A stretch of 34,153 nucleotides of DNA, from the IMG/VR virus record IMGVR_UViG_2874968258_000005. One strand, 5' to 3'. Made by a program: the position numbers and the translations under genes. Under the pieces are notes generated by a model. The model was not told where the DNA came from and made no database searches. It was given only the letters and a program-made list of their open reading frames with translations. Shown here piece by piece: positions 1-34,153 of this stretch (the stretch's first letter is position 1; the number at the start of each line of letters is the position of its first letter). This DNA is from a virus. Its lineage: Duplodnaviria; Heunggongvirae; Uroviricota; Caudoviricetes.

Positions 1-696
1 TCACTTCGGGTAAGGCTGAATCCTGAATAGCTTAGTATTTAGCCGCTTCCTTGCTCGCTTGTTCAGGAATCTGATGTAACGATATTGATTAAATTTGTGC
101 GCCACGGCCCGCTCCTTATTCGCTCGTAAATATTCGCCGCGCTTCCCTCCACGATTAATCGCATTCATCGTTATCTCGTGATACCACTCACCGTCCAGTT
201 CGTAGAATGTGCTTTCATGGCTGCCAATAAAATCAAAATTTGACGCCTGATACACAACACCTGCACGCCCGCAACGTTCGTCTGCAAAGGACTGAACCCA
301 CTCCACTGACGGATACAGTAACCTGATGGTTTTCAGCGCGTAGCTGATGGCCCGTGATTCAGAGTTGCGGGGCATGTCGTCGTGTAGCCACATGCGGTTC
401 AGTTCCATATAGCCCCGGTTATCCGTTTCAAGCACAACGCGACGCCCTGAGTTGGGGTTAAGGGCATATCCCCACTGAAGAACACCAACCAGATCACGTC
501 CACTGAATACGCCCAGATGCAACCAGGAGTTATTCACAAAACGGCGGGAATAATGCTTTGTCTGAATGATTGTGCGGGCCAGCCAGCAGGATATGGTTTC
601 AACGCGCAGCTCCCTTGAACCATAGCCGACAATCCGGCCTTCATACTCAATAACGCAGGGTTTTGTCAGAATGCGTGATTTCTTCTCTTTTCCCAC
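1..696 (-). CDS. mom: DNA modification protein Mom (adenine modification, anti-restriction)
   Basis: Last gene of the element, directly downstream of and overlapping com as in Mu. Track ORF 1..738 begins at TTG; an in-frame GTG at 696 gives a 231-aa product, the length I recall for Mu Mom. Stop TGA at 1..3. Confidence 0.75.
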
Positions 697-832
697 AATA
701 CAGCTCCGTGGGATGCTCCCGGGCACTCGATATGACAATGTAACGTTTACAGCGAGGACATTTGATTTCTATATGCTTAAAACCTCCTTTAAACAGCAAT
801 TTATTGCAATTTTTACAACGAACAGAGTCCAT
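647..832 (-). CDS. com: Com, zinc-finger translational activator of mom
   Basis: 61-aa product [14 protein letters not shown]...CPRCKR...[12 protein letters not shown] with a CxxC...CxxC zinc-finger pattern matching Mu Com. ATG at 832 preceded by GGGGGAA. 3' end overlaps the mom start region. Confidence 0.8.
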
Positions 833-906
833 AATTTCCCCCAGTGTAATAACAGGATATAGCTGCCCGGAGGGCTGGGGGTATTTAATCACACTTGATG
901 CAAACC

Positions 907-934
907 GACGATCGATATGATGCTATCGATCGTC
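907..934. promoter_or_regulatory. Inverted repeat carrying two GATC (Dam) sites upstream of com-mom; candidate methylation-sensitive regulatory site of the mom promoter
   Basis: GACGATCGATA-tgatgc-TATCGATCGTC: 11-bp perfect inverted arms, each with a GATC, about 75-100 bp upstream of the com start on the transcribed strand. Confidence 0.5.
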
Positions 935-956
935 ATAAACTATACAAACTGATTAT

Positions 957-1523
957 TTAATCGCCTGGTCTGAACGCTCTCACCTCGTCCAGTGTGGGCA
1001 ACAGAGAAAGTTGTTCTTTCATCTCCCGCTGACAGCGATAAATCTCATCGTTGCGCTCAACAATGGCCTGTATCATCGCTGTGGCCAGTTCCTCAAGTTC
1101 CTGCGTCGTCAGCTGCACCTGCTGATTATCCGCATCACTCCACGCCATATGTGTTTGTGCCGCGACAGATTTTGCCAGCATGACCACCGGGGACAGGCGG
1201 GCCACTGACGAGGCGTCAGCGTTCCACGTGCGACCGTTCCATTCAAACGTGAACGGCTTCGCCTCCTGTTCTGTGCGCCATGCTTCAATTCCCTGACGTC
1301 TGGCCTCTCTGGCCGCTTCCAGCATTTCTGGTGTCACAGTGAATGGGGCTATCTCACCCCATTTGCCGCTTTGCAGTTCCTGCCAGATTTGCTGACCCGT
1401 CGGAGCGACATCATCAGCGGTGGCTGTGTAGGGGACTGCCTGGTCCCTGTCGTCAAAAAAAACGTCACAGTCTACTGCGCCACTTTCGGTATAACGGGGA
1501 TTAATGATTTTTTTAATTTCCAC
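957..1523 (-). CDS. Tail fibre assembly protein (chaperone) for the second fibre
   Basis: Sits immediately after a fibre gene; size and position typical of Tfa. Start chosen at the in-frame GTG at 1523, preceded by GAGGAA and just after the fibre stop at 1534; the track ORF extends to 1583. Confidence 0.55.
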   Translation of the reverse strand: MEIKKIINPRYTESGAVDCDVFFDDRDQAVPYTATADDVAPTGQQIWQELQSGKWGEIAPFTVTPEMLEAAREARRQGIEAWRTEQEAKPFTFEWNGRTWNADASSVARLSPVVMLAKSVAAQTHMAWSDADNQQVQLTTQELEELATAMIQAIVERNDEIYRCQREMKEQLSLLPTLDEVRAFRPGD

Positions 1524-1533
1524 GGTGCATTCC

Positions 1534-2937
1534 TCACGATGTGCGAATAAAAAGCCCGGGCATTGCGCCAGAGACATGAGCATCCGGCACCCCGGACAGG
1601 GCGCAATATGACCCCGGTAATGAATGCTCTGAACATCCCGTAATGAAAAATTGTGGGGATGCTATATACGTTCCGGTGGGAGTACTGGGCACTGAAATCC
1701 CCACCGGTCCCAGTCGTGAGCCTCTGTATGACTGCCCCCTGACAAGTCTGATGACTTTATCACCGTCAGCTTCTCCCTGGTACGCAGCAATAATCAGCCC
1801 GCCAATGTCAGGGTCTCCCCATCTGTTGCGGACAGAGCTCGCCACGATTCTGTAAATAATATCTTCTGTGGTTATATCTATTTTCACCCAGCCAGTCAGT
1901 CTGGATATGGGCCAGTAGCAGTAGCGGGTGTGATAAATGGGGCCGTTAATGCCGTAAAAAGTAAGGGATTTGGCTCTGTACCGCGGTTCTGTTGTCTCAG
2001 GGCGTGCATCAGTCCACCGGATGCTGAGCACCCCTTCAAACCGTGTGTCGGGTATGATGCCCAGGCGGCCAGCAACGGAATACTCACCTGGCAGCGCATT
2101 CCTTACCCAGGCCAGGAAATCACTCTTAGTGTCAAAACGGATAACATCTTCAGGCAGAAAAGCACACCCAAAGCCGAATGCGCCGGGTATCGCCAGACGG
2201 CCTTTTGTCCGGTCGTAAATGTCGCTCTGTGCTTCCATCGTGGCTGCACTTTTCAGCCCCAGATTATCCCGGGACTTCTGTTGTGCCTTTTCGCCTGCTG
2301 CTGCGATTTCAGACAGATGGTTAGCCGTTTTCAGAGTGCCGGTCAGCGCAGCATCAATGTCATTTTTGGCCTGTTCTGCTGCGCGGGCATAACCTGCGGC
2401 TGCCTGTGCACGCTGACCGGATAAGACGGCGTTTTTCCCCGTGCTTTTCACGTCTTCCGCTGTGGCCTTTCTGTTCTCAGCTGTGACGGTTGCATCCTGT
2501 CGGGCTTTCTCCGCAAAACGTTGTGCATCATCACGGGCCGTTGCGGCTGCCGTCACATCCTGCGCCGTCTGCCGTGCGTTTCCGGCTGCGCTCCCGGCAC
2601 TCTGCTGCGCCTGTTGCGCCAGCTCTTCGAATTTCTTCAGGGATTCCGGACGCAGGTCAATATTAGTTGCGCCCAGAAAATCATTCAGCGAACCGTCCGT
2701 TGAATCTTCATAAACGCGGATGACACCGATTTCTGAAAGGCGCCGTGTGCTTTGTGTCAGGCGAACGCTGTACACACCCGGCAGAACGGGGAAGTCATAT
2801 TCCCCGTTCTGTGTGGTGACATGGCTGAAAACACTTTTCAGAATCCCTGCACGGTTGTGTATGGAGGTTAGTGTAATGGTTGCGCCGTCCAGCGGTTCTC
2901 CCGTGGGCGTTTTAATCACACCTTTAAGCTGCGGCAT
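1534..2937 (-). CDS. Tail fibre protein 2 (N-terminal prophage-tail-fibre-type domain, Ala/Gln-rich coiled-coil shaft, C-terminal beta-rich tip)
   Basis: 467 aa. N-terminus MPQLKGVIKTPTGEPLDGATITL..., a long AQQAQQSAGSAAGNARQTAQ shaft, and a Gly/Tyr/Trp-rich C-terminal domain. Followed by a Tfa gene. Confidence 0.65.
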   Translation of the reverse strand: MPQLKGVIKTPTGEPLDGATITLTSIHNRAGILKSVFSHVTTQNGEYDFPVLPGVYSVRLTQSTRRLSEIGVIRVYEDSTDGSLNDFLGATNIDLRPESLKKFEELAQQAQQSAGSAAGNARQTAQDVTAAATARDDAQRFAEKARQDATVTAENRKATAEDVKSTGKNAVLSGQRAQAAAGYARAAEQAKNDIDAALTGTLKTANHLSEIAAAGEKAQQKSRDNLGLKSAATMEAQSDIYDRTKGRLAIPGAFGFGCAFLPEDVIRFDTKSDFLAWVRNALPGEYSVAGRLGIIPDTRFEGVLSIRWTDARPETTEPRYRAKSLTFYGINGPIYHTRYCYWPISRLTGWVKIDITTEDIIYRIVASSVRNRWGDPDIGGLIIAAYQGEADGDKVIRLVRGQSYRGSRLGPVGISVPSTPTGTYIASPQFFITGCSEHSLPGSYCALSGVPDAHVSGAMPGLFIRTS

Positions 2938-3469
2938 CGGGACGCTCCGGCCAGTTGATGGCGTTATATGTGGCTTTATCTGTGATGGTGCTGAAATCCA
3001 TCGCCTGCAGCGATTTCGCGTAAATACGGTACGCTTTCAGTTTTTCCCGGTCTTCGTCGCTGATTAGCCCCAGCAGCAGGTCTTCTTCCCATTCCCCTGT
3101 CCGGGCACTGACCTGAGCCAGAAGGGCATCACGCTCATCTTCCGCTTTGAGTCTGTAGTCAAAGACAAATTCATCATTGCGGTAAAACCAGTAACCCGGC
3201 GCGGTAATGCGGCGGTTGGCGGTAATATCAGGAACTTCAATAACACTGGCGTTACGGGGTTCAATGCCTGTCACATCCTTACCGACCCACACCACGCGCC
3301 CGTCTCCGGTGTAAACCATTTTTATGGTGTCACTGGCAAAGTTCTTCTGTTCTTCATACCAGTTTTTGCCGTCTTCCGAAAAAAGCCAGGTGACATCATA
3401 CTGTTTTGTCAGCTGATATTGTTCCGCGGTTTTCGGATTACCTGCCGTAATATTTTTTAAATGCAACAT
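2924..3469 (-). CDS. Tail fibre assembly protein (Mu U / lambda Tfa-like) for the first fibre
   Basis: 181 aa directly after the S-like fibre. C-terminal region (...KLKAYRIYAKSLQAMDFSTITDKATYNAINWPERP) resembles the Tfa C-terminal domain. Confidence 0.7.
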   Translation of the reverse strand: MLHLKNITAGNPKTAEQYQLTKQYDVTWLFSEDGKNWYEEQKNFASDTIKMVYTGDGRVVWVGKDVTGIEPRNASVIEVPDITANRRITAPGYWFYRNDEFVFDYRLKAEDERDALLAQVSARTGEWEEDLLLGLISDEDREKLKAYRIYAKSLQAMDFSTITDKATYNAINWPERPDAAA

Positions 3470-3471
3470 TG

Positions 3472-4572
3472 TTAAATACTCGCTACGTTATACCAGGTGC
3501 CATTAATCAGTTTTTGCAGCGGTCGGTAATACACACCGTTGACGTTATCCGCTGAGTTACGGCCGGTATCCGATATCGATATCCCTGACAACCCGTGTCC
3601 CGAAGGTGAGCGAAACGTCCATGAAACGGTGTTGCTGCCAGGGTTGTAATACATTTCATAACCATACCGCACATCCTGTACCCCCTCAGTTCGATGTTTA
3701 TAGCGGGCATCGAAGTTTCCGTAGTCTGACGGTGTTACCCGTCCTGTAACGTTTACAGCTTTATTACTCTGGATACTGCCACTCTGAAAACGCAACACAT
3801 GCACGCTATTGGCATAAACATCCAGCAGGCCATCACCATTCTGTTTGAATCCGGTGTCATTATCACCAAGAACAATTGAATTCCCCCCCAGGGCGTTCTG
3901 AACGCCGATACCCAGCGCACCATTGACCTGCGAACCACCGCCAACAGACACTTTATGCGACATGGATATTTCACCCGTCCGCAGATTAATGGTGAACGGA
4001 CGCAGGGGGCCAATATCGCCATTCTCGCCCTGACCTTCACTGGTAGGGATAAGGTGCAGGCACTCTTCCGAACGACGAAAAATCAGGCCAAAAGCTTCGT
4101 TGAAAATCCTCAGCGCATTAACACCACGGATTTTCAGCTCTCCTGTCATCGTGCCGCCTGATTGTTTTATGACTTTCAGTGCATCTGCAAAATCTGTTGC
4201 ACTCTCTTTGCCGAGAATACCGCGCACAAAAGCACTGAGCGGTGTTAATGCCATTGTGTCTTTGCCGGTAAAATACGGGAATGTATTATTCTGACCGGTT
4301 AATCCGGCAATAGCACCGGCTGAACCACTGTTCGTAATAAACAGCTTTTTCAGCGCCGTCATAATCTGGTTGGTTGTGTTTTTATCCGGTTTGATATTTG
4401 CCTGCCGGAGTATTTCCAGTAATTCAGACTGAATAATATTAAACCAGTCCGGCCCCGGATAGGTGGGCGGAATACCGTTCCCGCCTTCGGTGAAATAAAG
4501 CGTTGTTTTGCTTAATTCTGCCGCGACAGGTGGCATTACCGGCACACCCGTCGGGTTATCCACATAAAACAT
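3472..4572 (-). CDS. Tail fibre protein 1 (Mu S-like, conserved N-terminal baseplate-attachment region)
   Basis: 366 aa. N-terminus MFYVDNPTGVPVMPPVA...YFTEGGNGIPPTYPGPDWFNIIQSEL is typical of Mu/P2-type fibre N-termini. Position is right after the baseplate genes. Confidence 0.7.
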   Translation of the reverse strand: MFYVDNPTGVPVMPPVAAELSKTTLYFTEGGNGIPPTYPGPDWFNIIQSELLEILRQANIKPDKNTTNQIMTALKKLFITNSGSAGAIAGLTGQNNTFPYFTGKDTMALTPLSAFVRGILGKESATDFADALKVIKQSGGTMTGELKIRGVNALRIFNEAFGLIFRRSEECLHLIPTSEGQGENGDIGPLRPFTINLRTGEISMSHKVSVGGGSQVNGALGIGVQNALGGNSIVLGDNDTGFKQNGDGLLDVYANSVHVLRFQSGSIQSNKAVNVTGRVTPSDYGNFDARYKHRTEGVQDVRYGYEMYYNPGSNTVSWTFRSPSGHGLSGISISDTGRNSADNVNGVYYRPLQKLINGTWYNVASI

Positions 4573-25735: not shown

Positions 25736-26283
25736 ACAGCAATTCTCCCGCTGTTTCGTGCGCGGGCATATGCACTGGTCAGTGCATCATAGCCGCGCAG
25801 CTTCCGCCCGGTTTCGCTCACAGGTAAAGGCACACCATGTCGGGCAAAGGCTTCCCGGATGCAGCGCATATGCCACTGTTTGAGCGTTTCGAGCACAACA
25901 TGCAACGATTCCCCGTGACACCAGGCCAGCGTGGAAACACCCTGACCGCCATTACGTCTGGCCGTCAGGCGTTCAACGTATTTGTCCAGCGCAGCGTCGC
26001 TGATATCGGAGACGAAACCATCAAGGAACATCTGCTGCCAGATTTTATAAATCTTCTCGCGCGGTGTGACATGCCCCTTAAAGCGACGGCGGGGATGTTT
26101 TTTCTGCTTCTTAAAACCGCGCTCTTTCATGGCATCGAGCACACGTTCCAGTTGTGCAACGGACAGCTCGCGGCAACTGGTTTTGCCCGTGTGCTGCACC
26201 AGAAAGGCGCGGTAAGTGTCATCGTCGAGTTGTAGATCACGACGGGCGACATGAATTAATTTAATCAGGGATGTGCGATTCAT
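25732..26283 (-). CDS. gemA: GemA-like regulatory protein (DUF1018)
   Basis: Start at the internal ATG giving 183 aa (MNRTSLIKLIHVARRDLQLDDDTYRAFL...). Directly upstream of mor. Confidence 0.7.
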   Translation of the reverse strand: MNRTSLIKLIHVARRDLQLDDDTYRAFLVQHTGKTSCRELSVAQLERVLDAMKERGFKKQKKHPRRRFKGHVTPREKIYKIWQQMFLDGFVSDISDAALDKYVERLTARRNGGQGVSTLAWCHGESLHVVLETLKQWHMRCIREAFARHGVPLPVSETGRKLRGYDALTSAYARARNSGRIAV

Positions 26284-26290
26284 TATCGTA

Positions 26291-26324
26291 CCTCCAGAAA
26301 AGGGGGCGGTGCGGCAACACCGCC
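26291..26324 (-). promoter_or_regulatory. Hairpin plus U-rich tract in the gemA leader (attenuator/terminator-like)
   Basis: Minus-strand GGCGGTG-uugccg-CACCGCC followed by CCCCUUUUCUGGAGG, the last part being the gemA RBS. Confidence 0.35.
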
Positions 26325-26356
26325 AGAATCCACTCACTAAACAGAGGAAACTTTTT

Positions 26357-26623
26357 ATGAAAAACAGTGAACAGCCTTATGATGTTGCAGGGTATGTCAT
26401 TGCCTCAAGGTTGCTGATACTCCTTGTCAGAAAGGGGCTAATTACCGCAGAAGAAGGCAAAACGATCCTCGAAGCCGCAGCAAGCGGAGCGGCAGAGGCT
26501 CCGGCATTGAGAACAACGAATAATCCCATCCTGCAAATATCACAGCTAATCACTGATACCATCAGTTTGTTAGACCAAGATTCTGATGAATATCAAAAGC
26601 CTCAGCCATCTGAGCATCCGTAA
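26357..26623 (+). CDS. Candidate opposite-strand small gene (89 aa) inside the early operon
   Basis: ATG at 26357 preceded by AGAGGAAA at 7-nt spacing. Occupies an otherwise non-coding gap, convergent with the minus-strand gene ending at 26562. Confidence 0.3.
   Translation: MKNSEQPYDVAGYVIASRLLILLVRKGLITAEEGKTILEAAASGAAEAPALRTTNNPILQISQLITDTISLLDQDSDEYQKPQPSEHP
26377..26562 (-). CDS. Candidate small hydrophobic protein (61 aa), translationally coupled to the upstream gene
   Basis: ATG overlaps the upstream stop (TGATG). Hydrophobic stretch GLFVVLNAGASAAPLAAASRIVL. Competes with the + strand ORF at 26357..26623. Confidence 0.3.
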   Translation of the reverse strand: MVSVISCDICRMGLFVVLNAGASAAPLAAASRIVLPSSAVISPFLTRSISNLEAMTYPATS

Positions 26624-26876
26624 GAATATCTTTATTTGATAGTCCCAGCCTGCGACGAATGTATTCCTCGCGGGCTGCTTCATTTTGTAGCGCCACGGCA
26701 GCTTCCACCTGGTTCATTTCACGGTTGATAATGCTCCGGACTTCTCTGGCGGTGAGGTCATGCTCAATACCATATTTAACAATATCATGCATACGTTCCA
26801 GCATCCTTAAATTAGCCATGACGTCATCAATATTAACTGGTGTGAATTTCATTTCTTTATTCTCTGGTTTATTCAT
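26562..26876 (-). CDS. Hypothetical early protein (104 aa, charged and helical)
   Basis: Start at the internal ATG with an AGAGG RBS. Low-GC segment. Confidence 0.5.
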   Translation of the reverse strand: MNKPENKEMKFTPVNIDDVMANLRMLERMHDIVKYGIEHDLTAREVRSIINREMNQVEAAVALQNEAAREEYIRRRLGLSNKDILTDAQMAEAFDIHQNLGLTN

Positions 26877-26905
26877 TTCGTAATACCTCTTCGCAATAAA
26901 AGATT

Positions 26906-27052
26906 TCATTGGGATAACGTTTTTGTATGCGCTCCATCACCTGCATACATGTCTGCTCTGTGGGCCAGATTTTTTTCCGTTACCGGAATGGCATCGCAGG
27001 CATCATTTCCGCAGGTGCCAACCAGCAGGACAAAGCCAGTTGACTTAATCAT
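26906..27052 (-). CDS. Candidate small protein (48 aa, Cys-containing)
   Basis: ATG at 27052 with an AGGAA RBS; overlaps the upstream gene by 8 nt. Confidence 0.3.
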   Translation of the reverse strand: MIKSTGFVLLVGTCGNDACDAIPVTEKNLAHRADMYAGDGAHTKTLSQ

Positions 27053-27584
27053 GCTCGCTGATTTCCTGTGTTTCCGCCGGAACCGGTGAATAATCAAGAA
27101 TGAGATAGCGCAGGACGTGGTCGGTGATATTCCAGCCACTGGAGCCACAAATAAAACGACCCAGCCGGATATCGATATAAGCCATCACAAAACGGGGCAT
27201 TCCCTGTTTACACATCTCGTCATCCACTTCAGCAACGATGTAAACCGACTCGCAGGTCAGTACGCCTGTCGCAAATTCTTTTGCCAGTGCCGGAATGGCA
27301 TTGCCTTCCAGCCAGGGCAAAGAGCGGCGGAACGTGCACCATTGCGCACCATCAACATCGGGGTGCTCCGTTGAATTTCGCCCGGCAGGCGGCTCTGCCC
27401 GGGAGCGCGGAACGTCGTAAAAGCCGTTCAGTTCAGTCAGCACTCCGGCATCAACCGCATCACGCAGGAAATACACCATTGCAGAGACCGGCATCCTCAT
27501 TTTGTCCGCCAGAACACCACAGGTCAGACGTCCGTAAGCCCGTAATAATGTGCTGACACCGTTCAGAACTTTTGCATCAATCAC
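27045..27584 (-). CDS. Hypothetical early-region protein (179 aa)
   Basis: ORF packed tightly between neighbours on the operon strand. Confidence 0.5.
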   Translation of the reverse strand: MIDAKVLNGVSTLLRAYGRLTCGVLADKMRMPVSAMVYFLRDAVDAGVLTELNGFYDVPRSRAEPPAGRNSTEHPDVDGAQWCTFRRSLPWLEGNAIPALAKEFATGVLTCESVYIVAEVDDEMCKQGMPRFVMAYIDIRLGRFICGSSGWNITDHVLRYLILDYSPVPAETQEISEHD

Positions 27585-27587
27585 CGG

Positions 27588-28136
27588 TTATTCCTCCGTC
27601 AGTGCCACAAATTCAGAATGTTTAATGCGCTGGCATTCGGCAGGAACCGGTCCCTTAACCTCACCATCCAGCAGGCACACCTCAAACAAAATGCCGAATC
27701 CGTCACGGCTGTGGTGCATCGTCCAGACTGATTTGAGATCAAACATGTTGGGTACAACATCAACCCCGAGTTCATTACACAACCAGACCGGGAATGTGGG
27801 ATATTTCCGGAGTTGCTCTTCATGTTCCTGAATAAGCGTCGCATTGTTTCGGCCTTCCGGTGTTGTTATATCCGGTACAACGCCATAAAACTGAAATCCA
27901 CCAATAAACAGTCCGTCTGATTTACCACGCCATAATTCCGGCGCTAATTGATTCATCCAGATACATTCAACCCGTTCATACCCTCTGTTACTGACAAGGG
28001 AAACACCGTCTGCGCCAAACGCACGCTGCAATGAGCAGATGATTTTGTCACGCTTAACAGAAACATCTTTCAGCCAGCGAATCGTATAACCGTTAGCGGC
28101 TGCGTCACTCAGTTTAAAATAAGCATATGCTTTCAT
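27588..28136 (-). CDS. Hypothetical early-region protein (182 aa)
   Basis: Start at the ATG preceded by GAGGAA (MKAYAYFKLSD...). Directly downstream of gam. Confidence 0.5.
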   Translation of the reverse strand: MKAYAYFKLSDAAANGYTIRWLKDVSVKRDKIICSLQRAFGADGVSLVSNRGYERVECIWMNQLAPELWRGKSDGLFIGGFQFYGVVPDITTPEGRNNATLIQEHEEQLRKYPTFPVWLCNELGVDVVPNMFDLKSVWTMHHSRDGFGILFEVCLLDGEVKGPVPAECQRIKHSEFVALTEE

Positions 28137-28233
28137 ATTCATTTCCTCTGGTCCTGATTCAGGCGCGAGCAATCCCCTGACGCATCGCGCCATAATTAAA
28201 AGAAAGTGAATTAATTAAATATTCGTCGTGGTA

Positions 28234-28758
28234 TTAAATACCGGCATCCTGTTCAAACGGAATAATAGAAAAATCTTCAATGCCTGATTTAACTGTAATT
28301 CCGGCGACACCTGCGACTGCTTTCGGCTCCAGTAAAATCGCTTCCTTGTTGATTTCCTGTTTCGTGCGAATAAAGCGTTGAAGGCCAAGACGCTCCAGTG
28401 TTTCCATCACCGCATCCACACCGCGAATACTTACTGATGGTGGGCGCTGACGCCATGACACATCACCGGTTACCAGGTTTGCCGTCTTCACCTTGCCGCC
28501 GTTCGTCAGTTCGTCACGGTTCGCTTCACACCATCCCTGAACGCCTTTTGAAAGGGTTTCGATACTGGTTTTAAGCGGTGCAATCTGTGAGGCGTATTTC
28601 TCCGTAATCTCAGCGATAGCGTCATTCATTTCCGTTTCAAGTCGTGCTGCTTCGCGTTGCAGGTCCCCAATCCGGCGGATATCACATACCACGGCATCGC
28701 GGGATTGCGGAACATAAGCCGCTGCGGCGTTCCTGATTCGTTTTGCGGGTTTAGCCAT
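28234..28758 (-). CDS. gam: Host-nuclease inhibitor protein Gam (Mu Gam family, DNA-end binding)
   Basis: 174 aa, the same length as Mu Gam, with MAKPAKRIRNAAAAYVPQSRDAV...WCEANRDELTNGGKVKTANLVTGDVSWRQRPPSVSIRG... Confidence 0.85.
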   Translation of the reverse strand: MAKPAKRIRNAAAAYVPQSRDAVVCDIRRIGDLQREAARLETEMNDAIAEITEKYASQIAPLKTSIETLSKGVQGWCEANRDELTNGGKVKTANLVTGDVSWRQRPPSVSIRGVDAVMETLERLGLQRFIRTKQEINKEAILLEPKAVAGVAGITVKSGIEDFSIIPFEQDAGI

Positions 28759-28776
28759 AAATAAAGCTCCTGTTAA

Positions 28777-29064
28777 TTAATATTCACTGTATACAATGCC
28801 GGATACAGCACGATTGCTTAATTCCATCTTTTGGGCTATCACATGAATAGCCAGCCCTTCTTTATAAAGTTCACGGCATAAATATTTGTCGTGCTCACTG
28901 ACCTGGTATGCACACAACGATATTCCGTGCCTTCTGGCATGTGCCTGTAGGGCGGTTGGGGCAACTTTCAGTTTTTTCGCCATTTCCTCGACGGTCATTT
29001 TTCCGACACTGGCTTCGATAAATTCCCGGTCTTCGCGTGACCAGCGTTTACGATTACACGTCAT
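28777..29064 (-). CDS. Small DNA-binding protein with two helix-turn-helix-like segments
   Basis: ...RKRWSREDREFIEASVGKMTVEEMAKKLKVAPTALQAHARRHGI... AT-rich segment. Start taken at the internal ATG; the track ORF begins at 29076 (GTG). Confidence 0.5.
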   Translation of the reverse strand: MTCNRKRWSREDREFIEASVGKMTVEEMAKKLKVAPTALQAHARRHGISLCAYQVSEHDKYLCRELYKEGLAIHVIAQKMELSNRAVSGIVYSEY

Positions 29065-29076
29065 TCCGGTCACCAC

Positions 29077-29496
29077 TCAGTACAACAGAGGCTCGCGCAG
29101 TGATGCCGGAATATGCCGCAGCGATAACTGAACCGCTTTCAGGACAAGCGAGGAATAACAGCAGCGCGCCCAGCCTTTTGCCATTAACCGGTAATCGCGC
29201 CAGATACGCTGCCACATTTCACGGGCTTTCGGGTCTGACGCGCAGATGTATTCGCGGTCCATGACGTATTCCCATAAATCCACATTGAAGGCATTGCCAA
29301 ACGTAATGGCGCGGAATACCGCCTCTCCGCAATAACGCGCACAAATGCTGTAATGGTCAAATGCAATCAGGTAAGTCTTTTCGCCATACCCCTCAACTTC
29401 GCGCGCACAAATAAATTCGCGCAAGTCTCCACCATTGTTATTACGCTCTTTAATCCGAATTAATGCCCGGATTTCATTTCGGATTTTGACGTTCAT
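29077..29496 (-). CDS. Hypothetical early protein (139 aa)
   Basis: ATG with an AAAGGAA RBS. AT-rich segment between kil-like and gam. Confidence 0.45.
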   Translation of the reverse strand: MNVKIRNEIRALIRIKERNNNGGDLREFICAREVEGYGEKTYLIAFDHYSICARYCGEAVFRAITFGNAFNVDLWEYVMDREYICASDPKAREMWQRIWRDYRLMAKGWARCCYSSLVLKAVQLSLRHIPASLREPLLY

Positions 29497-29510
29497 TGTC
29501 AGCGTTCCTT

Positions 29511-29774
29511 TCAGTGGCATGTTTTTTCAACAGCCATTTCAGTGACACGGCCACCGGTGATGACACTATCGTTTTTCAAAATCTCGATAGCTTCATGGGC
29601 TGACTCATTAATTATTTTCTGGCTTTTATTAAGCACCAGTAACGCCACCATGCCAGCAAGTGTACCCTCATCACCGTCCAGTTCCGCACTACCGTCCACC
29701 GCAATGCTGGTGCGCAAATTCAGTCCTTTAATTCCAGATACTGTATTTTTAATTTCAATAATTACTTTTGCCAT
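29511..29774 (-). CDS. Hypothetical early protein (87 aa)
   Basis: ATG preceded by GAGGA (MAKVIIEIKN...). Confidence 0.45.
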   Translation of the reverse strand: MAKVIIEIKNTVSGIKGLNLRTSIAVDGSAELDGDEGTLAGMVALLVLNKSQKIINESAHEAIEILKNDSVITGGRVTEMAVEKTCH

Positions 29775-29806
29775 TTTGTTATTCCTCACAAATAAATAAG
29801 CCGTTA

Positions 29807-30034
29807 TTAACGCCAGATAATCTGGCAGCCATTAAGGCGGGCCGTCCATACTGAACGGGCAACCCCTGATTTATGCTCCATAATCCTGACAGCGTTTCTG
29901 ACCAGCTCCGGTGGTGGGCAGGTGATTTCAAGTACCGGACGCGCCACGCCGAGATATGATTCATTTACGTGACTCCCGTGCGCCTGTAACCAGTTCTGCG
30001 CATCCGTTGCCATTTTTATATTTCGTGACATCAT
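29807..30034 (-). CDS. Kil-like small protein (first gene after B)
   Basis: 75 aa in the position of Mu kil (74 aa). Assignment is by synteny and size only. Confidence 0.4.
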
Positions 30035-30049
30035 GGTTTATGTCCTTTA

Positions 30050-31000
30050 CTACCAGTTCAGTAACCTGGGGTTGCTGTAAGCCTCCTTAAAAGCCGCTTT
30101 AATGTGACTTTTATTCAGGGATGTGCCTGCACCTTTTGCCGCCAGCCACGCATGATTCAGTGTGTGAGTTAATACACGCAATCCCCCGGGCTTTTCGGCT
30201 ACCCTCATCAGCAGGTCCAGCTCATCTTCCTGTGTTACTCCCCATGCTTTGGCTACAGCCATCACATCGGTCTTTTTTACTTTGCGCAGTTGTTTTGTCA
30301 TGGCAAAACGGCTGAACAGACGGGCCAGTTCATCAGTCCCACGACGGGTGGCATCCGCCATCTGTTTCGGGTTGCCAATTAAAACCATCCCCACGCCAGT
30401 GGCATCCTGAATGGCGCGTAATTGCTCCAGACCATCCACACTTAAGTGATCAGCTTCATCAATAATCAGAAGGGGGTTAACACGGCCACTGGTTTCTTTA
30501 CCACCACCCAGTTTTCTGCGAATGGCGCGGGTTATATTCCCCTTATTTCTTCCCGGATTATTAATTTCCAGCGCATATGCTATTTCAAGGAGGCATTCCG
30601 TTACGCTCGAATGTGCCGGAGCAAGAGTCACCATCCAGGCATTAGCTGTCCTGCGACAATATTCCCGGGCAGCAAAGGTTTTTCCGACACCCGGTACGCC
30701 AACAACGACACTGATAATCCCGAGTGAGCGCACTGTTTTAAACAGCTCATGCAAATCACAAAATGTCTGGGTCTTCACAACACCAGGGGTACCTGACAAG
30801 TTCTGTCCCTTCTGCCAGACCTGATACCATTTCTGTAATTTGTCATGCATACCTTCGACATTACCGTTGTACTCTCCTTTACGCAGAGCCGAGAGTGTTG
30901 CCGGAGACATTCCGGCTTCATCAGCAATATCTTCCTGAGACTTGTCGCCCTCGTTAATCAAAGCGTTAATAGTGTTGAAAACATCATCAATATCAGTCAT
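30050..31000 (-). CDS. B: Transposition ATPase / target DNA activator B (MuB)
   Basis: 316 aa with Walker A GVPGVGKT and Walker B LLIIDEADHL. GAGGAA RBS. Directly downstream of A. Confidence 0.9.
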   Translation of the reverse strand: MTDIDDVFNTINALINEGDKSQEDIADEAGMSPATLSALRKGEYNGNVEGMHDKLQKWYQVWQKGQNLSGTPGVVKTQTFCDLHELFKTVRSLGIISVVVGVPGVGKTFAAREYCRRTANAWMVTLAPAHSSVTECLLEIAYALEINNPGRNKGNITRAIRRKLGGGKETSGRVNPLLIIDEADHLSVDGLEQLRAIQDATGVGMVLIGNPKQMADATRRGTDELARLFSRFAMTKQLRKVKKTDVMAVAKAWGVTQEDELDLLMRVAEKPGGLRVLTHTLNHAWLAAKGAGTSLNKSHIKAAFKEAYSNPRLLNW

Positions 31001-31075: not shown

Positions 31076-33172
31076 TCAGGCCAGCGGATCATCTTCTTCC
31101 TGCATGGCAAAAAGTTTTTGCATCCCCAGCCGGAAATCGCGTTCAAATTCTTCGTCATGCTCTTCTTCATATTCCGGTTGCTGAACTGCCACCACATTAC
31201 CAACCGGGCGATAAACATTACTCAGCCAGGGTTCAGCCTGTTTGTGTTCCAGAATCTGAATACCTTCATCTTCAGCATCACGAATTTTTTCCTCAGCGCG
31301 TTTGCGCATTCCTTTAATACGCTGCTGTTGTTTGTGATATTCAGCACTGACAGCAAAGGCTGCGCGTTTATTGCCGTTCCATATCGCCTCACAGATAAAG
31401 CTGCCGTCCTTGCGACGTACCGTAATTCGCTCGGCGTCATGAATGTCATAACTGATAAGCACTTTGCGACCGTGTTCGTCACGCAACTCCGGCGCGTAGT
31501 AAATATTGTTCAGCCACTGAATTTCGCAGCGTCTTACCGGTCGTTCCACCATTGGGCGGAACATGTCGCGCAGCTCAAGATCACTCAGCCACTCAATTTC
31601 GGTGTCTTCTTCTGCCAGGCGTTTTTTTCTGAACTCTGTCGGGCTGTAATGCCGTCCGTTCGGTTTCATCGGCAGCTCAGAATGCGGGCGGTTGTTGTAC
31701 CATTCCACGCCTTCACGAATAGCCTCAATAAGCTCCGCCCACGATGGCAGCTCGCGCATTGCCGCTTTCTGGCGGTCGTTCAGAGGCTTGTCCTGTTGCA
31801 GGGCGTTAAACGCTGAACGCAGATCACGGTTAAGTACACGCAACGATTCCCGGTCAGCACCCTTGCCAAAATAGGTGCGATACCTCCTGGCTATACGCAT
31901 CGGCAGTGTCCGGTTCAGGCGTTCAATAATGCCGCGTCCCTGTGGATTACCGGCAATACCGGTAGGGTGTTTAATCCCCAGGCGTGGCAGAATACCCACG
32001 ACCTCTTTGTCCAGCATGTCAGCCGTTTCACCGGAACCGTTATCCGAGTAATACAGGAACGGTTTTCCGTGGTTGCGAATGCCGTGCTGTATCGCACCGG
32101 CAACGGCGAACACGTTTTCGGCAAGGTCAAGACTCCAGCCAACAACAAACCGTGTTCCACCATCGATCACAAACGTGACTTCCGGTGAGAATGGACGCCC
32201 GTGGATCGGATGCGCACATTTCAGCTTCATACCGTGACCGTCACCAATCCAGACATAATTCACCGGCATAGCTGTCCAGTCGCGGCGGGTGAATCCTTCA
32301 AGCTGACGGTATTCACTGCCGGTAACGCGCCCTTTTTGTCTCACCACTTCCGGCAGTTTTTTCATGGCATACCGGACAACATCATAGGAAGGCATCACCT
32401 CCAGCATGTACGGTTCGTCCGCATGGCGACGCTGCCATTCTGCGACAAAATCCTCGTAGGCTTCTGACATGGGTCTGCCGTTCACCTGCCGATACTGCGC
32501 CAGAAATTCAGGCAGCCAGCTGATTTCTTCCGGTTTTATTTCGTCGCGTTTTCCCGGTGCCAGTAACAGCAGCCGTTCGGCGGCGTTCTGCGACTGGTTG
32601 TATTTCAGAACCCACTGGTAAAGTGGATCGCGGCTGATAGTACGATTAGCGCCACGTTTTGCATTGGCGTTAACTGCGGCCTGTTGCAGGCGCTCCGGCA
32701 GCTCACCTTTACGGGCTTTTTCAACAAGAAAGTTAATGGCTTTCAGTCGCCCGAGGTTACCGGCGCTTTCCAGCTTCAGCACTTCCACCACCAGCGCAGC
32801 TCTTGCTTCAGATACCCGGCGCTGGTTTTCGGTCAGCGCATTCAGGCGTTCTTCCATCAGTTGTGGAGAACCGCGATATGCTTCGATTGCCTGGACAGCG
32901 TCAGGATTGCGTGTTTTTCTGGTAACAGCTTTCACTTCAGAAACATTGTTCTCTGTAGCCACCAGCTGTTCCACATAGCGTTCACGCAGTGCCTTTCGTG
33001 TTATTTCAGGCAGACAATCAATGTGGTACTCAATGGCTTTTGTGCCTTCCCGACGGCGACTAACGTCACCAAGATCACGAGAAAAACGCTGTAACGCCTG
33101 TCGGATGCCTTTTGTGGTGGCTGGCATTCCTGGTACGCCGAGCAGGTCATTTACGGTAACGTACGACTGCAT
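31076..33172 (-). CDS. A: DDE transposase A (MuA family)
   Basis: N-terminal winged-helix region (...GTKAIEY...) and DDE core (...WIGDGH..., ...YSDNGSG..., ...GNPQGRGIIERLNRTL...). ATG 1 nt after the ner stop (TGAtATG); the track ORF extends to 33241 from a GTG. Confidence 0.9.
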   Translation of the reverse strand: MQSYVTVNDLLGVPGMPATTKGIRQALQRFSRDLGDVSRRREGTKAIEYHIDCLPEITRKALRERYVEQLVATENNVSEVKAVTRKTRNPDAVQAIEAYRGSPQLMEERLNALTENQRRVSEARAALVVEVLKLESAGNLGRLKAINFLVEKARKGELPERLQQAAVNANAKRGANRTISRDPLYQWVLKYNQSQNAAERLLLLAPGKRDEIKPEEISWLPEFLAQYRQVNGRPMSEAYEDFVAEWQRRHADEPYMLEVMPSYDVVRYAMKKLPEVVRQKGRVTGSEYRQLEGFTRRDWTAMPVNYVWIGDGHGMKLKCAHPIHGRPFSPEVTFVIDGGTRFVVGWSLDLAENVFAVAGAIQHGIRNHGKPFLYYSDNGSGETADMLDKEVVGILPRLGIKHPTGIAGNPQGRGIIERLNRTLPMRIARRYRTYFGKGADRESLRVLNRDLRSAFNALQQDKPLNDRQKAAMRELPSWAELIEAIREGVEWYNNRPHSELPMKPNGRHYSPTEFRKKRLAEEDTEIEWLSDLELRDMFRPMVERPVRRCEIQWLNNIYYAPELRDEHGRKVLISYDIHDAERITVRRKDGSFICEAIWNGNKRAAFAVSAEYHKQQQRIKGMRKRAEEKIRDAEDEGIQILEHKQAEPWLSNVYRPVGNVVAVQQPEYEEEHDEEFERDFRLGMQKLFAMQEEDDPLA

Positions 33173-33173
33173 A

Positions 33174-33425
33174 TCACGACACCTTCCTGATAAATCCATC
33201 GTTACGATACCGGCTGGGCCAGATGATTTCTGGCGGTACACCTATAGCGTCAGAAATTACGCGTTCGTATTTTTTGTTTGGTGTGCGAACTACCGCTTTC
33301 AGTGAATCCTGAGCATAACCAGCATGGAGTGAAAGCTCCCGGAAGGAAGACCACCCGTTATCTTTGAGCGCCAGCTGAATCTTCAGCGAAGGCCAATCGC
33401 GGTCACTATCTTCTCTTTGTCTCAT
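33174..33425 (-). CDS. ner: Ner-like DNA-binding regulator (Ner/Nlp family)
   Basis: 83 aa with ...DW...IWPSRY... motifs. Divergent from the repressor and immediately upstream of A. Confidence 0.8.
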   Translation of the reverse strand: MRQREDSDRDWPSLKIQLALKDNGWSSFRELSLHAGYAQDSLKAVVRTPNKKYERVISDAIGVPPEIIWPSRYRNDGFIRKVS

Positions 33426-33589
33426 CTTTCCTTTAACCTACAAAATTACCCGCGCGGATATCCGGTCGGATATCCGTATGGATAAAGATTAAGATACCAA
33501 AGATTCCTTGTAAAGGGTTCTTTGGTGTTTTTATGGTTTATTTTTTAATTTCATTATTTATCAATGAATTAGATAGGAAGGAACCAAGA
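33426..33589. promoter_or_regulatory. Divergent operator/promoter region between repressor and ner (early promoter, operators, possible transposition enhancer)
   Basis: Tandem 10-bp perfect palindromes CGGATATCCG at about 33455-33464 and 33467-33476, plus a partial third copy. The remainder is AT-rich. Confidence 0.5.
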
Positions 33590-34153
33590 ATGAGAAAAGC
33601 ACCCCAAGGTTCTTTTCCTGCCGATGGAAAAGAACCGATTATCGAAAGAATCTTTAGGTTAGTAGAACGATACCCTTCAAGAAATGCGGCTGCTCGGGCA
33701 TGGGGGATCAATGAAGGCACTTTAAAAAATTATTACAACAGGCGGGATTACGCACCGATACCACGCCCGCATCAGTTAAAAAAGATAGCAGAAAGCGAAA
33801 ATGTTACCTTGGAATGGCTCATGACGGGAGAGGGTGATGTTGAACTAAAAGATTCCAAAGAACCCAAAAAAGAGAATGCGGATAATGTTGATGCTCAAAT
33901 TCTAATGTTCTTGTCATTTCTTAAACCACAAGAAAAACAACAAGTAGCTGATGTTCTTGGGAGAAAAGGAGCGGAGCAATTACTCATTCTTCTGGATGAG
34001 CACATCCAAGAGTTGCACGCTCTAGTTGGAGTTCGTAGAGCCATAGCGTTAAGCCTTGGTAATTTGCCAGACGAAAAGGTTAGAGAGATTTACGCGTTGT
34101 CCGAAGCTAAGGGCGATCACTTAAATCTACCTCAGAAAGCAGCCAGCGCATAA
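33590..34153 (+). CDS. Prophage repressor (c-equivalent), XRE-type helix-turn-helix
   Basis: Start at the ATG preceded by AGGAAGGAA (the track ORF begins at 33533). HTH ...NAAARAWGINEGTLKNYYNRR... and the ...VTLEWLMTGEG... motif typical of XRE/CI-type repressors. AT-rich. Divergent from ner. Confidence 0.65.
   Translation: MRKAPQGSFPADGKEPIIERIFRLVERYPSRNAAARAWGINEGTLKNYYNRRDYAPIPRPHQLKKIAESENVTLEWLMTGEGDVELKDSKEPKKENADNVDAQILMFLSFLKPQEKQQVADVLGRKGAEQLLILLDEHIQELHALVGVRRAIALSLGNLPDEKVREIYALSEAKGDHLNLPQKAASA

Follow-up and report, generated by a model that had tools for sequence, protein, structure and literature searches.

The region between ner and a divergently transcribed repressor gene raises two questions: which protein reads the palindromes found there, and how far does this control region depart from that of Mu? 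The locus controls the choice between lysis and lysogeny in a Mu-like transposable prophage, and is an ordinary variant of a known design. The window (the whole stretch of DNA that was analysed, 34,153 bases) probably carries, to judge from its sequence, a Mu-type immunity switch composed of independently recombining modules, in which the palindrome array would be the operator of Ner and a chimeric repressor would act at operators of its own.

Genomic context

B, A and ner lie in that order on the minus strand, with the repressor gene divergent on the plus strand and an intergenic region of 164 bp between ner and the repressor. As in Mu and D108, repressor and ner diverge at the left end, with A and B beyond ner, and a Ner homologue is encoded as the first early gene. 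The genes and domains concerned are:

33174-33425, minus strand: ner, encoding 83 aa, at the head of the early operon ner-A-B (Pfam PF13693 HTH_35, PHROG 769)
33590-34153, plus strand: repressor gene, 187 aa (Pfam, AlphaFold model, hhalign, PHROGs)
33626-33844, plus strand: repressor residues 13-85, N-terminal Cro/CI-type helix-turn-helix domain (AlphaFold model, Foldseek, Pfam)
33881-34114, plus strand: repressor residues about 98-175, C-terminal all-helical domain homologous to the C-terminal domain of Mu and D108 c, the homology reaching to about residue 180 (hhalign, PHROGs)

The repressor is labelled 'hypothetical protein' in RefSeq. Its start codon is the ATG at 33590 and not an upstream ATG at 33533, in agreement with homologues and with the RefSeq record of an identical prophage. 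In E. coli FDAARGOS_943 the repressor stop is followed by ~270 bp with no annotated gene, and then by a hypothetical protein and an IS5 transposase. A megablast search of the region against the phage collection gave no matches, and relatives were obtained by protein search and from E. coli genomes. Among 5,426 complete E. coli genomes, 193 contain a related ner and array, most of them O157/STEC; Shigella and Salmonella also have members of the repressor family.

A preliminary description of this DNA correctly stated that the repressor gene is more AT-rich than the transposase; the values are 43% and 53% GC, respectively. The GC fraction is 0.431 in the repressor gene and 0.269 in the intergenic DNA on its side, compared with 0.526 in transposase A, 0.488 in ner and 0.546 in the whole window. 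However, AT-richness is not special to this cassette, because the c genes of Mu (0.423) and D108 (0.430) are equally AT-rich. Those of the relatives examined fall between 0.415 and 0.446, and all are AT-rich relative to their own transposases. With 42-43% GC in the c genes of Mu and D108, AT-richness is ruled out as a sign of foreign origin.

The repressor

By fold and profile comparison the repressor is a domain chimera, with a Cro/CI-type head on a Mu-type tail, and is not wholly foreign. In the AlphaFold model the N-terminal domain consists of five helices (residues 17-25, 31-38, 42-50, 60-70 and 74-79; pLDDT about 90), a fold shared with the 434, P22 c2, 186 CI and P2 C repressors, and is joined to the C-terminal domain by a low-confidence linker. 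The best PDB fold matches observed with Foldseek are 434 Cro, P22 c2, 186 CI, P2 C, TP901-1 CI and SinR, with TM-scores on the target of about 0.7-0.76 and an rmsd of 2.2-2.8 Å (0.72-0.76 and 2.3-2.8 Å for 434 Cro and P22 c2) and with weak whole-model E-values. Neither the Mu repressor nor a MuA domain occurs among the 50 Foldseek matches listed. The sole Pfam match is to PF07022 (Phage_CI_repr), at an E-value of 0.0047 and 17.7 bits, below the 22-bit gathering cut-off; this profile is matched by 17 of the 21 members of the repressor family at E-values up to 0.01 (best 1.3e-5). Against PDB sequences, a profile search with the repressor gives weak helix-turn-helix matches only (E 0.16 or worse).

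The DNA-binding domain of Mu and D108 c is instead PF02316 (E 3e-54 and 4e-51, respectively), a winged helix common to Mu c and MuA. This profile matches neither the window repressor nor any of the 21 family members in Pfam searches. In contrast to Mu, it is found in the window transposase (N-terminus, E 4.9e-7) and not in the window repressor, the head of which has no homology to the enhancer-binding domain of the transposase. The Cro/CI-type five-helix domain would stand in place of the MuA-like winged helix of Mu c, and the earlier assignment of the repressor to the XRE/CI type is upheld.

Kinship with the Mu and D108 repressors along the whole length of the protein, which the preliminary description had named as grounds for rejecting its proposal, is found for one half of it. 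The C-terminal domains are homologous (hhalign probability 96.1%, E 3.1e-9, 81 columns), whereas the N-terminal domains are unrelated (probability 0.1%). PHROGs agree independently: repressor residues 87-184 match PHROG 7148, the Mu c family (E 6.5e-12), and Mu c residues 69-163 match PHROG 3037 (E 8.5e-5). The latter is the family in which the window repressor is already catalogued (E 1.3e-43, with residues 2-184 aligned to positions 3-188 of the 189 in the profile). The C-terminal domain matches no solved structure. Unlike lambda-type SOS-inducible repressors, the protein has an all-helical C-terminal domain, and the S24 peptidase (autocleavage) domain is absent from the repressor and its family in Pfam searches. 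The C-terminal tails, through which ClpXP controls repressor stability in the Mu and D108 c family, are of the K-A-G or K-x-A-S-A type in the repressor family and KKAV in Mu and D108 c, a resemblance only. Oligomerisation and protease sensitivity are understood to reside in the C-terminal domain of Mu c, and by analogy a similar role may be inferred for that of the window repressor.

The palindrome array upstream of ner

33446-33485, no strand assigned: candidate Ner operator array (repeats, in-register conservation, co-segregation with ner, position as in D108)

The window contains exactly two copies of CGGATATCCG, one at 33455-33464 and the other at 33467-33476, with starts 12 bp apart and a gap of 2 bp. 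Allowing at most one mismatch, the window contains 7 matches versus 0.89 expected from shuffles, and 0 of 100 shuffles reach 7. These are the two perfect 10-bp palindromes of the preliminary description, and its partial third unit corresponds to the half-site GGATAA at 33480-33485, which is in phase. A TTACCC hexamer at 33446-33451 mirrors GGATAA, so that the entire element forms a ~40-bp imperfect palindrome, with GGATA-type half-sites phased at 12 bp. The array lies 21-60 bp upstream of the ner ATG, and the two perfect palindromes 30-51 bp upstream.

Over 15 non-redundant loci the hexamers of the array are kept in register, while the spacers are more variable. The central dyad is complementary in 83% of cells and shows compensatory A-T/T-A swaps (AU/UA at 9:4). 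Its covariation score and percentage paired are equalled by 0 of 500 shuffles, and all slid controls score far lower; two pair-count measures do not stand out against the 500 shuffles. For the outer 6-bp inverted repeats (TTAYCC-N4-GGATAW), covariation does not rise above that of shuffles. In Yersinia phage vB_YpM_5 (locus L032) the two central units are direct, not inverted, repeats.

As in D108, a dyad-symmetric element lies 25-55 bp upstream of the ner ATG, in the leader downstream of the (predicted) early promoter Pe. In the D108 sequence this is an 11-bp perfect inverted repeat at 25-54 bp, presumably the Ner site that was reportedly footprinted by Tolias and DuBow in 1985. The window Ner is 34% identical to D108 Ner and matches PF13693 HTH_35 (E 1e-13), the Mu Ner structure 1NER (E 5.6e-7) and the structure of EnrR (7F9H, E 7.9e-6). 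EnrR, a homologous Ner-family protein of Edwardsiella piscicida (PDB 7F9H; PMC9023278), has been crystallised with DNA, two of its protomers lying close together on a short CTATAG palindrome, the AT core of which resembles the GATATC core of each window palindrome. However, its target sequence differs, and by our own alignment its base-contacting residues R47, N51 and R55 correspond to D, A and T in the window Ner, so the EnrR binding mode is not transferable residue by residue. Unlike the window Ner, EnrR is a chromosomal, nucleoid-associated regulator outside any phage switch.

The pairing of the two units may also indicate a function in RNA. In this case the 5' end of the ner-A-B transcript would fold, through the palindromes, into a 9-bp stem-loop that stabilises or attenuates the transcript, with or without DNA binding by Ner. 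With the Pe start predicted at about 33479, the palindromes would span roughly +4 to +25 of the transcript. The hairpin has a predicted folding energy of -16.4 kcal/mol, and complementarity of the two units is kept by compensatory changes across relatives. However, the same covariation is expected from a dyad-symmetric protein site. The fold is also unexceptional (z-score -1.25; equalled or bettered by 24 of 200 shuffles), the outer stem pairs are broken in half of the relatives, the direct repeats of L032 cannot pair, and there is no Rfam match. A role as RNA is accordingly considered unlikely.

A mosaic junction separates the array from the repressor

The region is a recombinational mosaic, as previously described, with a junction at about 33486. 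Between the window and the prophage of E. coli 06-00048 (L002), identity is mostly 90-100% through B, A, ner and the palindromes, with dips to 77-88%, and drops to 47-68% from about 33486 to the end of the window. Ner is 98% identical between the two and A 94%, compared with 42% for the repressor, and the array is identical. Loci L110 and L111 have identical Ner proteins and different repressors, and their arrays are equal except for one spacer base. Loci L004 and L033 are 98% identical in A and 55% in Ner, and their arrays differ, with GGATATCC twice in the former and GGATAACC/GGTTATCC in the latter. The window and L004 are 84% identical in Ner and 51% in A, and both contain GGATATCC twice. 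In three informative recombinants the array co-segregates with ner and not with the repressor or A; the palindromes follow ner.

The preliminary description had left open whether the palindromes are bound by the XRE-type repressor or by Ner. They are good candidates for operators, lying in the repressor-ner intergenic region with the dyad symmetry of sites bound by dimeric Cro/CI repressors. However, they fall on the ner side of the junction, and in both the window and L002 the same array accompanies repressors with N-terminal domains only 50% identical and different recognition helices (EGTLKNYY in the window, NTLQSYF in L002). The different repressors of L110 and L111 likewise face nearly the same array, and it is a second set of inverted repeats, described below, that does change with the repressor. 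Based on these observations, assignment to the repressor seems very improbable, and the array most likely binds Ner. Co-segregation with ner could be plain linkage, because the array is only 30 bp from the gene. A scan of IMG/VR for GGATATCC-N4-GGATATCC returned 60 loci; it yielded no new recombinants, because the 4 that adjoin ner are all from one phage lineage and the rest are in unrelated contexts.

In Mu the operator region doubles as the transposition enhancer (PMC3820752), as the preliminary description noted, because repressor and transposase share a DNA-binding domain. The array might by extension be the enhancer, or part of it, and the window transposase does keep a Mu-type N-terminal winged-helix domain (PF02316, aligning with MuA residues 1-56), but this seems very improbable: L004 and L033 have different array variants in spite of transposases that share 98% identity, or 99% within the N-terminal 75 residues, whereas the window and L004 share GGATATCC twice with transposases only 51% identical. 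An enhancer in this phage need not coincide with the repressor operators, because the repressor no longer shares the domain of the transposase.

Early promoter and candidate repressor operators

33486-33491, minus strand: candidate Pe -10 hexamer TAATCT, also the approximate ner/repressor module junction (promoter scan, column conservation)
33509-33514, minus strand: candidate Pe -35 hexamer TTTACA, at the centre of O1 (promoter scan, column conservation)
33530-33557, plus strand: weak candidate repressor promoter Pc, TTTATG, 16-bp spacer, CATTAT (7 of 12; read from sequence, low confidence)
33496-33526, no strand assigned: O1, candidate repressor operator, inverted repeat ACCAAAGATTCC ttgtaaa GGGTTCTTTGGT (repeats, relatives, side of junction)
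33595-33616, no strand assigned: O2, inverted repeat AAAAGCACC ccaa GGTTCTTTT, overlapping the repressor start
33628-33636, no strand assigned: third half-site AAAAGAACC beside O2 (repeat search)

A stricter promoter and terminator scan of 33300-33750 found no sites, and the assignment of Pe is based on a laxer scan together with positional conservation across loci. Of 18 loci, 9 have a sigma-70-like promoter in identical alignment columns (-10 at 50-55, -35 at 73-78, spacer 17; scores 8-10 of 12), and 5 more have one within 1-3 bp of these columns. The window's own match is weak (8 of 12); relatives have TTGACA, TTGATT or TTGAAT at the -35 column. The predicted -10 is immediately upstream of the array. 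The Pc candidate is below the listing threshold of the scan (8 of 12), and better Pc-like versions occur at similar columns in relatives, such as TTTATG-16-TATTAT in L035.

The repressor operators are likely to be separate inverted repeats of GGTTCTTT-type half-sites, namely O1 and O2. These repeats, at 33496-33526 and 33595-33636, are likelier operators that the first reading of the sequence had missed. O1 is on the repressor side of the junction. Most relatives have an inverted repeat of their own at the O1 columns, and its half-site follows the recognition helix of the repressor: NTLxSY(F/Y) repressors are accompanied by TACC/GGTA half-sites in 6 of 6 loci, and xTLxNYY repressors mostly by GAAC/GTTC or GGTG. 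At O2, relatives have the same 9-bp arms with a 4-bp spacer and a half-site altered to fit their own O1. O1 and O2 match better within a locus than between loci (permutation p 0.0036). All four AAAGAACC octamers in the window fall within 33516-33864. Dyad symmetry of the candidate operators, and the overlap of one of them with a promoter -35, are features in common with Cro/CI (XRE) repressors.

O2 and the third half-site (33595-33636) overlap the first 16 codons of the repressor gene, and the O2 half-sites coincide with conserved codons (K-E-P and G-S-F residues), so their conservation is partly due to coding. The spacers of O1 (7 bp) and O2 (4 bp) also differ, which is awkward for a single binding mode.

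A possible regulatory scheme

Comparison with relatives suggests a pairing of proteins with sites, and a regulatory logic, in which three modules would recombine separately from one another: one made up of the transposase genes, one of ner together with its operator, and one of the repressor together with its operators. The repressor would bind inverted repeats of GGTTCTTT-type half-sites. At O1, centred on the Pe -35, it would shut off ner-A-B, and at O2, over its own start, it may act in autoregulation or cooperative binding. The array would lie just downstream of the predicted Pe start, within the ner leader, where Ner may bind the GATATC cores as closely packed pairs. Accumulated Ner would then throttle early transcription, as Ner does in Mu and D108.

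In Mu, Ner represses both promoters. In contrast, no repressor promoter in the window is near enough to the array for repression by Ner.

Relatives and related systems

In sequence, the candidate operators of the window and its putative Ner site have no relation to their counterparts in Mu and D108, and the window transposase is only about 25% identical to MuA. Closer relatives of the repressor are the members of PHROG 3037 ('transcriptional repressor'), which include the repressors of Yersinia phages vB_YpM_5, vB_YpM_6 and Tongde, the 'C repressor' of Pseudomonas phage VW-6B, and proteins of Mu-like prophages of STEC, Salmonella and Shigella. The window repressor is 37-56% identical to them over 73-95% of the protein. 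These loci have the same ner-repressor architecture, and their intergenic lengths cluster at 160-164 bp. No experimental characterisation of PHROG 3037 repressors is apparent in the searchable literature. The window repressor differs from the other members in its recognition helix (INEGTLKNYY) and in its candidate operator half-site (GGTTCTTT), which together would imply a distinct immunity specificity.

Implications

It is possible, although rather doubtful, that the repressor of this lineage of Mu-type phages, having lost the DNA-binding domain that it shares with the transposase in Mu, can no longer stand in for the transposase at the enhancer. In that case immunity would act on transcription only, or the enhancer would have moved to DNA inherited together with ner and A, or two unrelated domains would compete for overlapping DNA. 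If this were true, the observed separate reassortment of A, ner and repressor would be possible only through that uncoupling.

The understanding of Mu-type regulation is unchanged by these results. They show that Mu c is modular, with an exchangeable DNA-binding head and a C-terminal domain that is kept, and they yield a map, open to experimental test, of an immunity switch that had not been annotated before, in which one set of sites is predicted to belong to Ner and another to the repressor. The pairs of half-site and recognition helix predict at least four immunity specificities, which may be of use in prophage annotation and in the prediction of heteroimmunity.

Gene layout

The final 4 kb of the window contain, in reverse orientation, the left end of a transposable prophage of the Mu type. 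The genes are arranged as follows.

30050-31000, minus strand: B, with a MuB C-terminal domain and an AAA domain
31076-33172, minus strand: A (transposase), with a Mu transposase C-terminal domain, an rve core and a Mu-type N-terminal DNA-binding domain
33174-33425, minus strand: ner
33590-34153, plus strand: repressor, 187 aa

Both edges of the window coincide with stop codons, the right one with that of the repressor and the left one with that of a minus-strand ORF (1-738). The window appears to have been trimmed to gene boundaries, with the prophage ends (attL, attR) lying outside it. An essentially identical prophage in E. coli FDAARGOS_943 (99.9% over 33100-34153) has no annotated gene in the ~270 bp past the repressor stop.

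The c-ner-A-B block is divergent from Mu throughout. A shares only ~25% identity with MuA, and at the DNA level Mu, D108 and SfMu cease to be similar at ~30035, just before B. The semi-essential region (26030-30035) is 84-91% identical at the DNA level to SfMu, Mu, D108 and Yersinia Mu-like phages, while past 30050 only the Yersinia phages vB_YpM_5 and vB_YpM_6 stay similar (87% over B and the greater part of A, up to ~32590). The breaks at ~30035 and ~32590 indicate that the transposition genes are a mosaic module apart from the immunity cassette.

A chimeric repressor

The N-terminal domain of the repressor is predicted to form five helices (pLDDT ~90), and its best PDB fold matches are all of the Cro/CI type (434 Cro, P22 c2, 186 CI, P2 C and TP901-1 CI). 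PF07022 (Phage_CI_repr) is the sole Pfam family for the repressor; 17 of 21 relatives match it, and the window protein is sub-threshold. The Mu and D108 repressors (c) are instead strong members of PF02316, the Mu-type DNA-binding domain, to which the N-terminus of the window's own transposase also belongs. The XRE-type head proposed in the preliminary description, unlike that of Mu, is thus borne out. The AT-richness noted there is also present (43.1% GC in the repressor gene and 26.9% in the repressor-side intergenic DNA, against 52.6% in A), but it is not diagnostic, since the same GC gap between c and transposase exists in Mu (c 42.3%), D108 (43.0%) and every relative examined (41.5-44.6%).

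An alignment of the repressor family (A1, 21 sequences) and one of Mu/D108 c (A3) were each cut into halves and compared by hhalign. The C-terminal domains are homologous (probability 96.1%, E 3.1e-9, 81 columns), whereas the N-terminal domains are unrelated (probability 0.1%); cross-comparisons of opposite halves were also negative. Full-length alignment with Mu or D108 c, the counter-reading in the preliminary description, therefore holds for the C-terminal half and fails for the N-terminal half. PHROG 3037 ("transcriptional repressor") covers the repressor along its full length (E 1.3e-43), and PHROG 7148, the family of Mu c, covers residues 87-184 (E 6.5e-12); reciprocally, residues 69-163 of Mu c match PHROG 3037. 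The repressor is thus a chimera, with an exchanged DNA-binding head and a retained Mu-type tail.

No S24 peptidase domain is present in the repressor, so that induction by RecA-stimulated autocleavage, a route reported for some Mu-like phages (PMC8541194), is not expected. By analogy with Mu, the repressor may depend on proteolysis acting through its tail.

Mosaic junction

Compared with a prophage of E. coli 06-00048 (L002), the window is mostly 90-100% identical (with dips to 77-88%) across B, A, ner and the palindromes, but identity falls to 47-68% from ~33486 through the window end, and the two repressors are only 42% identical. A second, independent pair of STEC prophages (L110 and L111) encodes an identical Ner protein and diverges directly after the palindrome array into different repressor cassettes. 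Both comparisons uphold the description of this region as mosaic.

Several further observations concern the distribution of these segments. A 136-kb plasmid of E. coli 06-00048 (pCFSAN004178P_01, 1-3586) carries the chromosome's ner, array and repressor cassette again with identical protein accessions, the copy being either another Mu-like insertion or a duplication from the assembly. A ner-plus-array query matches 193 of 5,426 complete E. coli genomes; in 189 records, mostly O157/STEC, the match is confined to 33391-33486 (the ner 5' end and array, ~77%), a stretch that matches far more genomes than the remainder of the query. Among the E. coli genomes, one and the same Ner is paired with no fewer than two repressor types. 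In E. coli STEC388 (L004), Ner is mostly of the window type but has a Tongde-like C-terminal tail (…SRYQTVSRIQKAS), and the transposase is 98% identical to Tongde's, placing a recombination junction within the 3' end of ner.

The palindrome array and its likely ligand

The tandem palindromes and partial third reported earlier are present: CGGATATCCG occurs exactly twice in the window (33455-33464 and 33467-33476), followed in phase by GGATAA (33480-33485), with the mirror-image TTACCC at 33446-33451. Eighteen loci (E. coli, Shigella, Yersinia phages, a Pseudomonas phage and other Enterobacterales) were aligned in register from the ner leader; the ner-repressor intergenic length is 160-164 bp in most. 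The array consensus is TTAyCC-N4-GGATAw-N6-GGwTAT-N6-GGrTAA, with conserved hexamers and more variable spacers. The two central units keep their mutual dyad symmetry through compensatory changes (GGATATCC/GGATATCC in the window type, GGATAACC/GGTTATCC in the Tongde type). In this dyad 83% of cells are complementary, with an AU/UA swap at one position (9:4). Its covariation score and percentage paired were reached by none of 500 shuffles, and slid controls scored far lower; two pair-count measures were not outstanding against the 500 shuffles.

Pairwise comparison of Ner, A, repressor and array

Window and L002: Ner 98%, A 94%, repressor 42%; array identical
L110 and L111: same Ner protein, different repressors; array equal but for one spacer base
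L004 and L033: Ner 55%, A 98%, repressor 40%; array of a different variant
Window and L004: Ner 84%, A 51%, repressor 44%; GGATATCC twice in each

In these comparisons the array tracks ner only, although at 30 bp from ner linkage alone could produce the co-segregation. A 5' RNA hairpin is a minor rival to a Ner operator: one is predicted at -16.4 kcal/mol, but its fold z is only -1.25, its outer pairs are not conserved, the units in vB_YpM_5 are direct repeats, and there is no Rfam match. The palindromes stand as candidate operators, but their assignment to the repressor is contradicted by the two pairs that share Ner and array yet differ in repressor. A transposase enhancer is likewise contradicted, since L004 and L033 have 98% identical A and different array variants. 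The palindrome positions, GC contrast, and fold and Pfam checks show the preliminary observations to be correct; the feature is real, and its interpretation was partly right.

A Ner operator has a counterpart in D108, where an 11-bp perfect inverted repeat, reportedly the footprinted Ner site, occupies the equivalent place 25-54 bp upstream of the ner ATG. In the crystal structure of EnrR, a Ner-family protein, two protomers pack closely on a compact CTATAG palindrome (PMC9023278), a plausible model by analogy for a Ner pair on each GATATC core. On IMG/VR contig 3300025293_001225, two CTATAG motifs (GAGCTATAG...CTATAGAGC) lie ~30-75 bp upstream of the ATG of a distant ner, whose product is 49% identical and has a different recognition helix. 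CTATAG is also the palindrome in the EnrR crystal, which suggests that short palindromes with an AT core precede ner across the family in general.

Candidate repressor operators and promoters

The repressor side of the junction contains a different set of sites.

33486-33514, minus strand: candidate early promoter Pe, from positional conservation (-35 TTTACA 33509-33514, 17-bp spacer, -10 TAATCT 33486-33491)
33496-33526: O1, candidate repressor operator, an inverted repeat centred on the Pe -35
33595-33616: O2, candidate repressor operator, 9-bp arms with a 4-bp spacer, overlapping the repressor start
33628-33636: third half-site, overlapping the repressor start

The sigma-70-like minus-strand promoter falls in the same alignment columns in 9 of the 18 loci and lies no more than 1-3 bp off in 5 others, reading TTGACA-17-TATGCT in some relatives; from this conservation we take it to be Pe. 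O1 falls beyond the junction, towards the repressor, and has half-sites that vary with the repressor. The recognition helix NTLxSY(F/Y) is accompanied by AAAATACC/GGTATTTT in 6/6 loci; among repressors with xTLxNYY, most have AAAGAAC/GTTCTTT or GGTGTTTT variants. The O2 geometry recurs in relatives, with a half-site matching each one's own O1. Similarity of O1 and O2 is higher within than between loci (permutation p 0.0036). This is a weak test, and coding constraint partly confounds O2. The window has four AAAGAACC octamers in its 34 kb, all of them in 33516-33864. The repressor probably binds repeats of the O1/O2 type.

The prophages of Shigella flexneri SFBU1023 and E. coli ECMA0423 are 98-100% identical to the window in A, ner and the repressor gene. 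Within 33480-33580 their substitutions cluster in the O1/promoter stretch, where 60-nt windows drop to 92-93%, with four T-to-C changes in the O1 palindrome (ACCAAAGATTCCTTGTAAAGGGTTCTTTGGT to ACCAAAGACTCCCTGCAAAGGGCTCTTTGGT); the repressor has one change, H61Y. The cluster may reflect operator evolution or gene conversion.

No convincing repressor promoter was found, the lone candidate being TTTATG-16-CATTAT (33530-33557, 7/12 match). Between O1 and O2, TATCAATGAATTA (33559-33571) agrees with the IHF consensus, WATCAANNNNTTR; Mu has an IHF site in the corresponding interval. Conservation of the window's motif is partial, relatives having tcAATTrGATA.

Proposed switch and implications

Repressor on O1 would occlude the -35 of Pe and keep ner-A-B silent, and O2 may serve in cooperative binding or autoregulation. 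Upon induction, Pe would start transcription at ~33479, and accumulating Ner would occupy the array, which lies at about +1 to +35 of the ner leader, and limit early transcription, as Ner does in Mu and D108.

HTH-type instead of Mu-type repressors have been documented in Mu-like phages (PMC8541194, PMC4378225), and the repressor family already exists as a PHROG, with a "C repressor" annotation in phage VW-6B. What may be new is the explicit demonstration of a head swap on a repressor with a Mu-type tail, the assignment of sites to two separate sets, and the reassortment of three modules; for a temperate-phage immunity region each of these is unsurprising. Of the consequences, the most interesting concerns the enhancer. 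The Mu repressor is homologous to the enhancer-binding domain of the transposase and can hence compete at the enhancer, whereas the window repressor lacks this homology.
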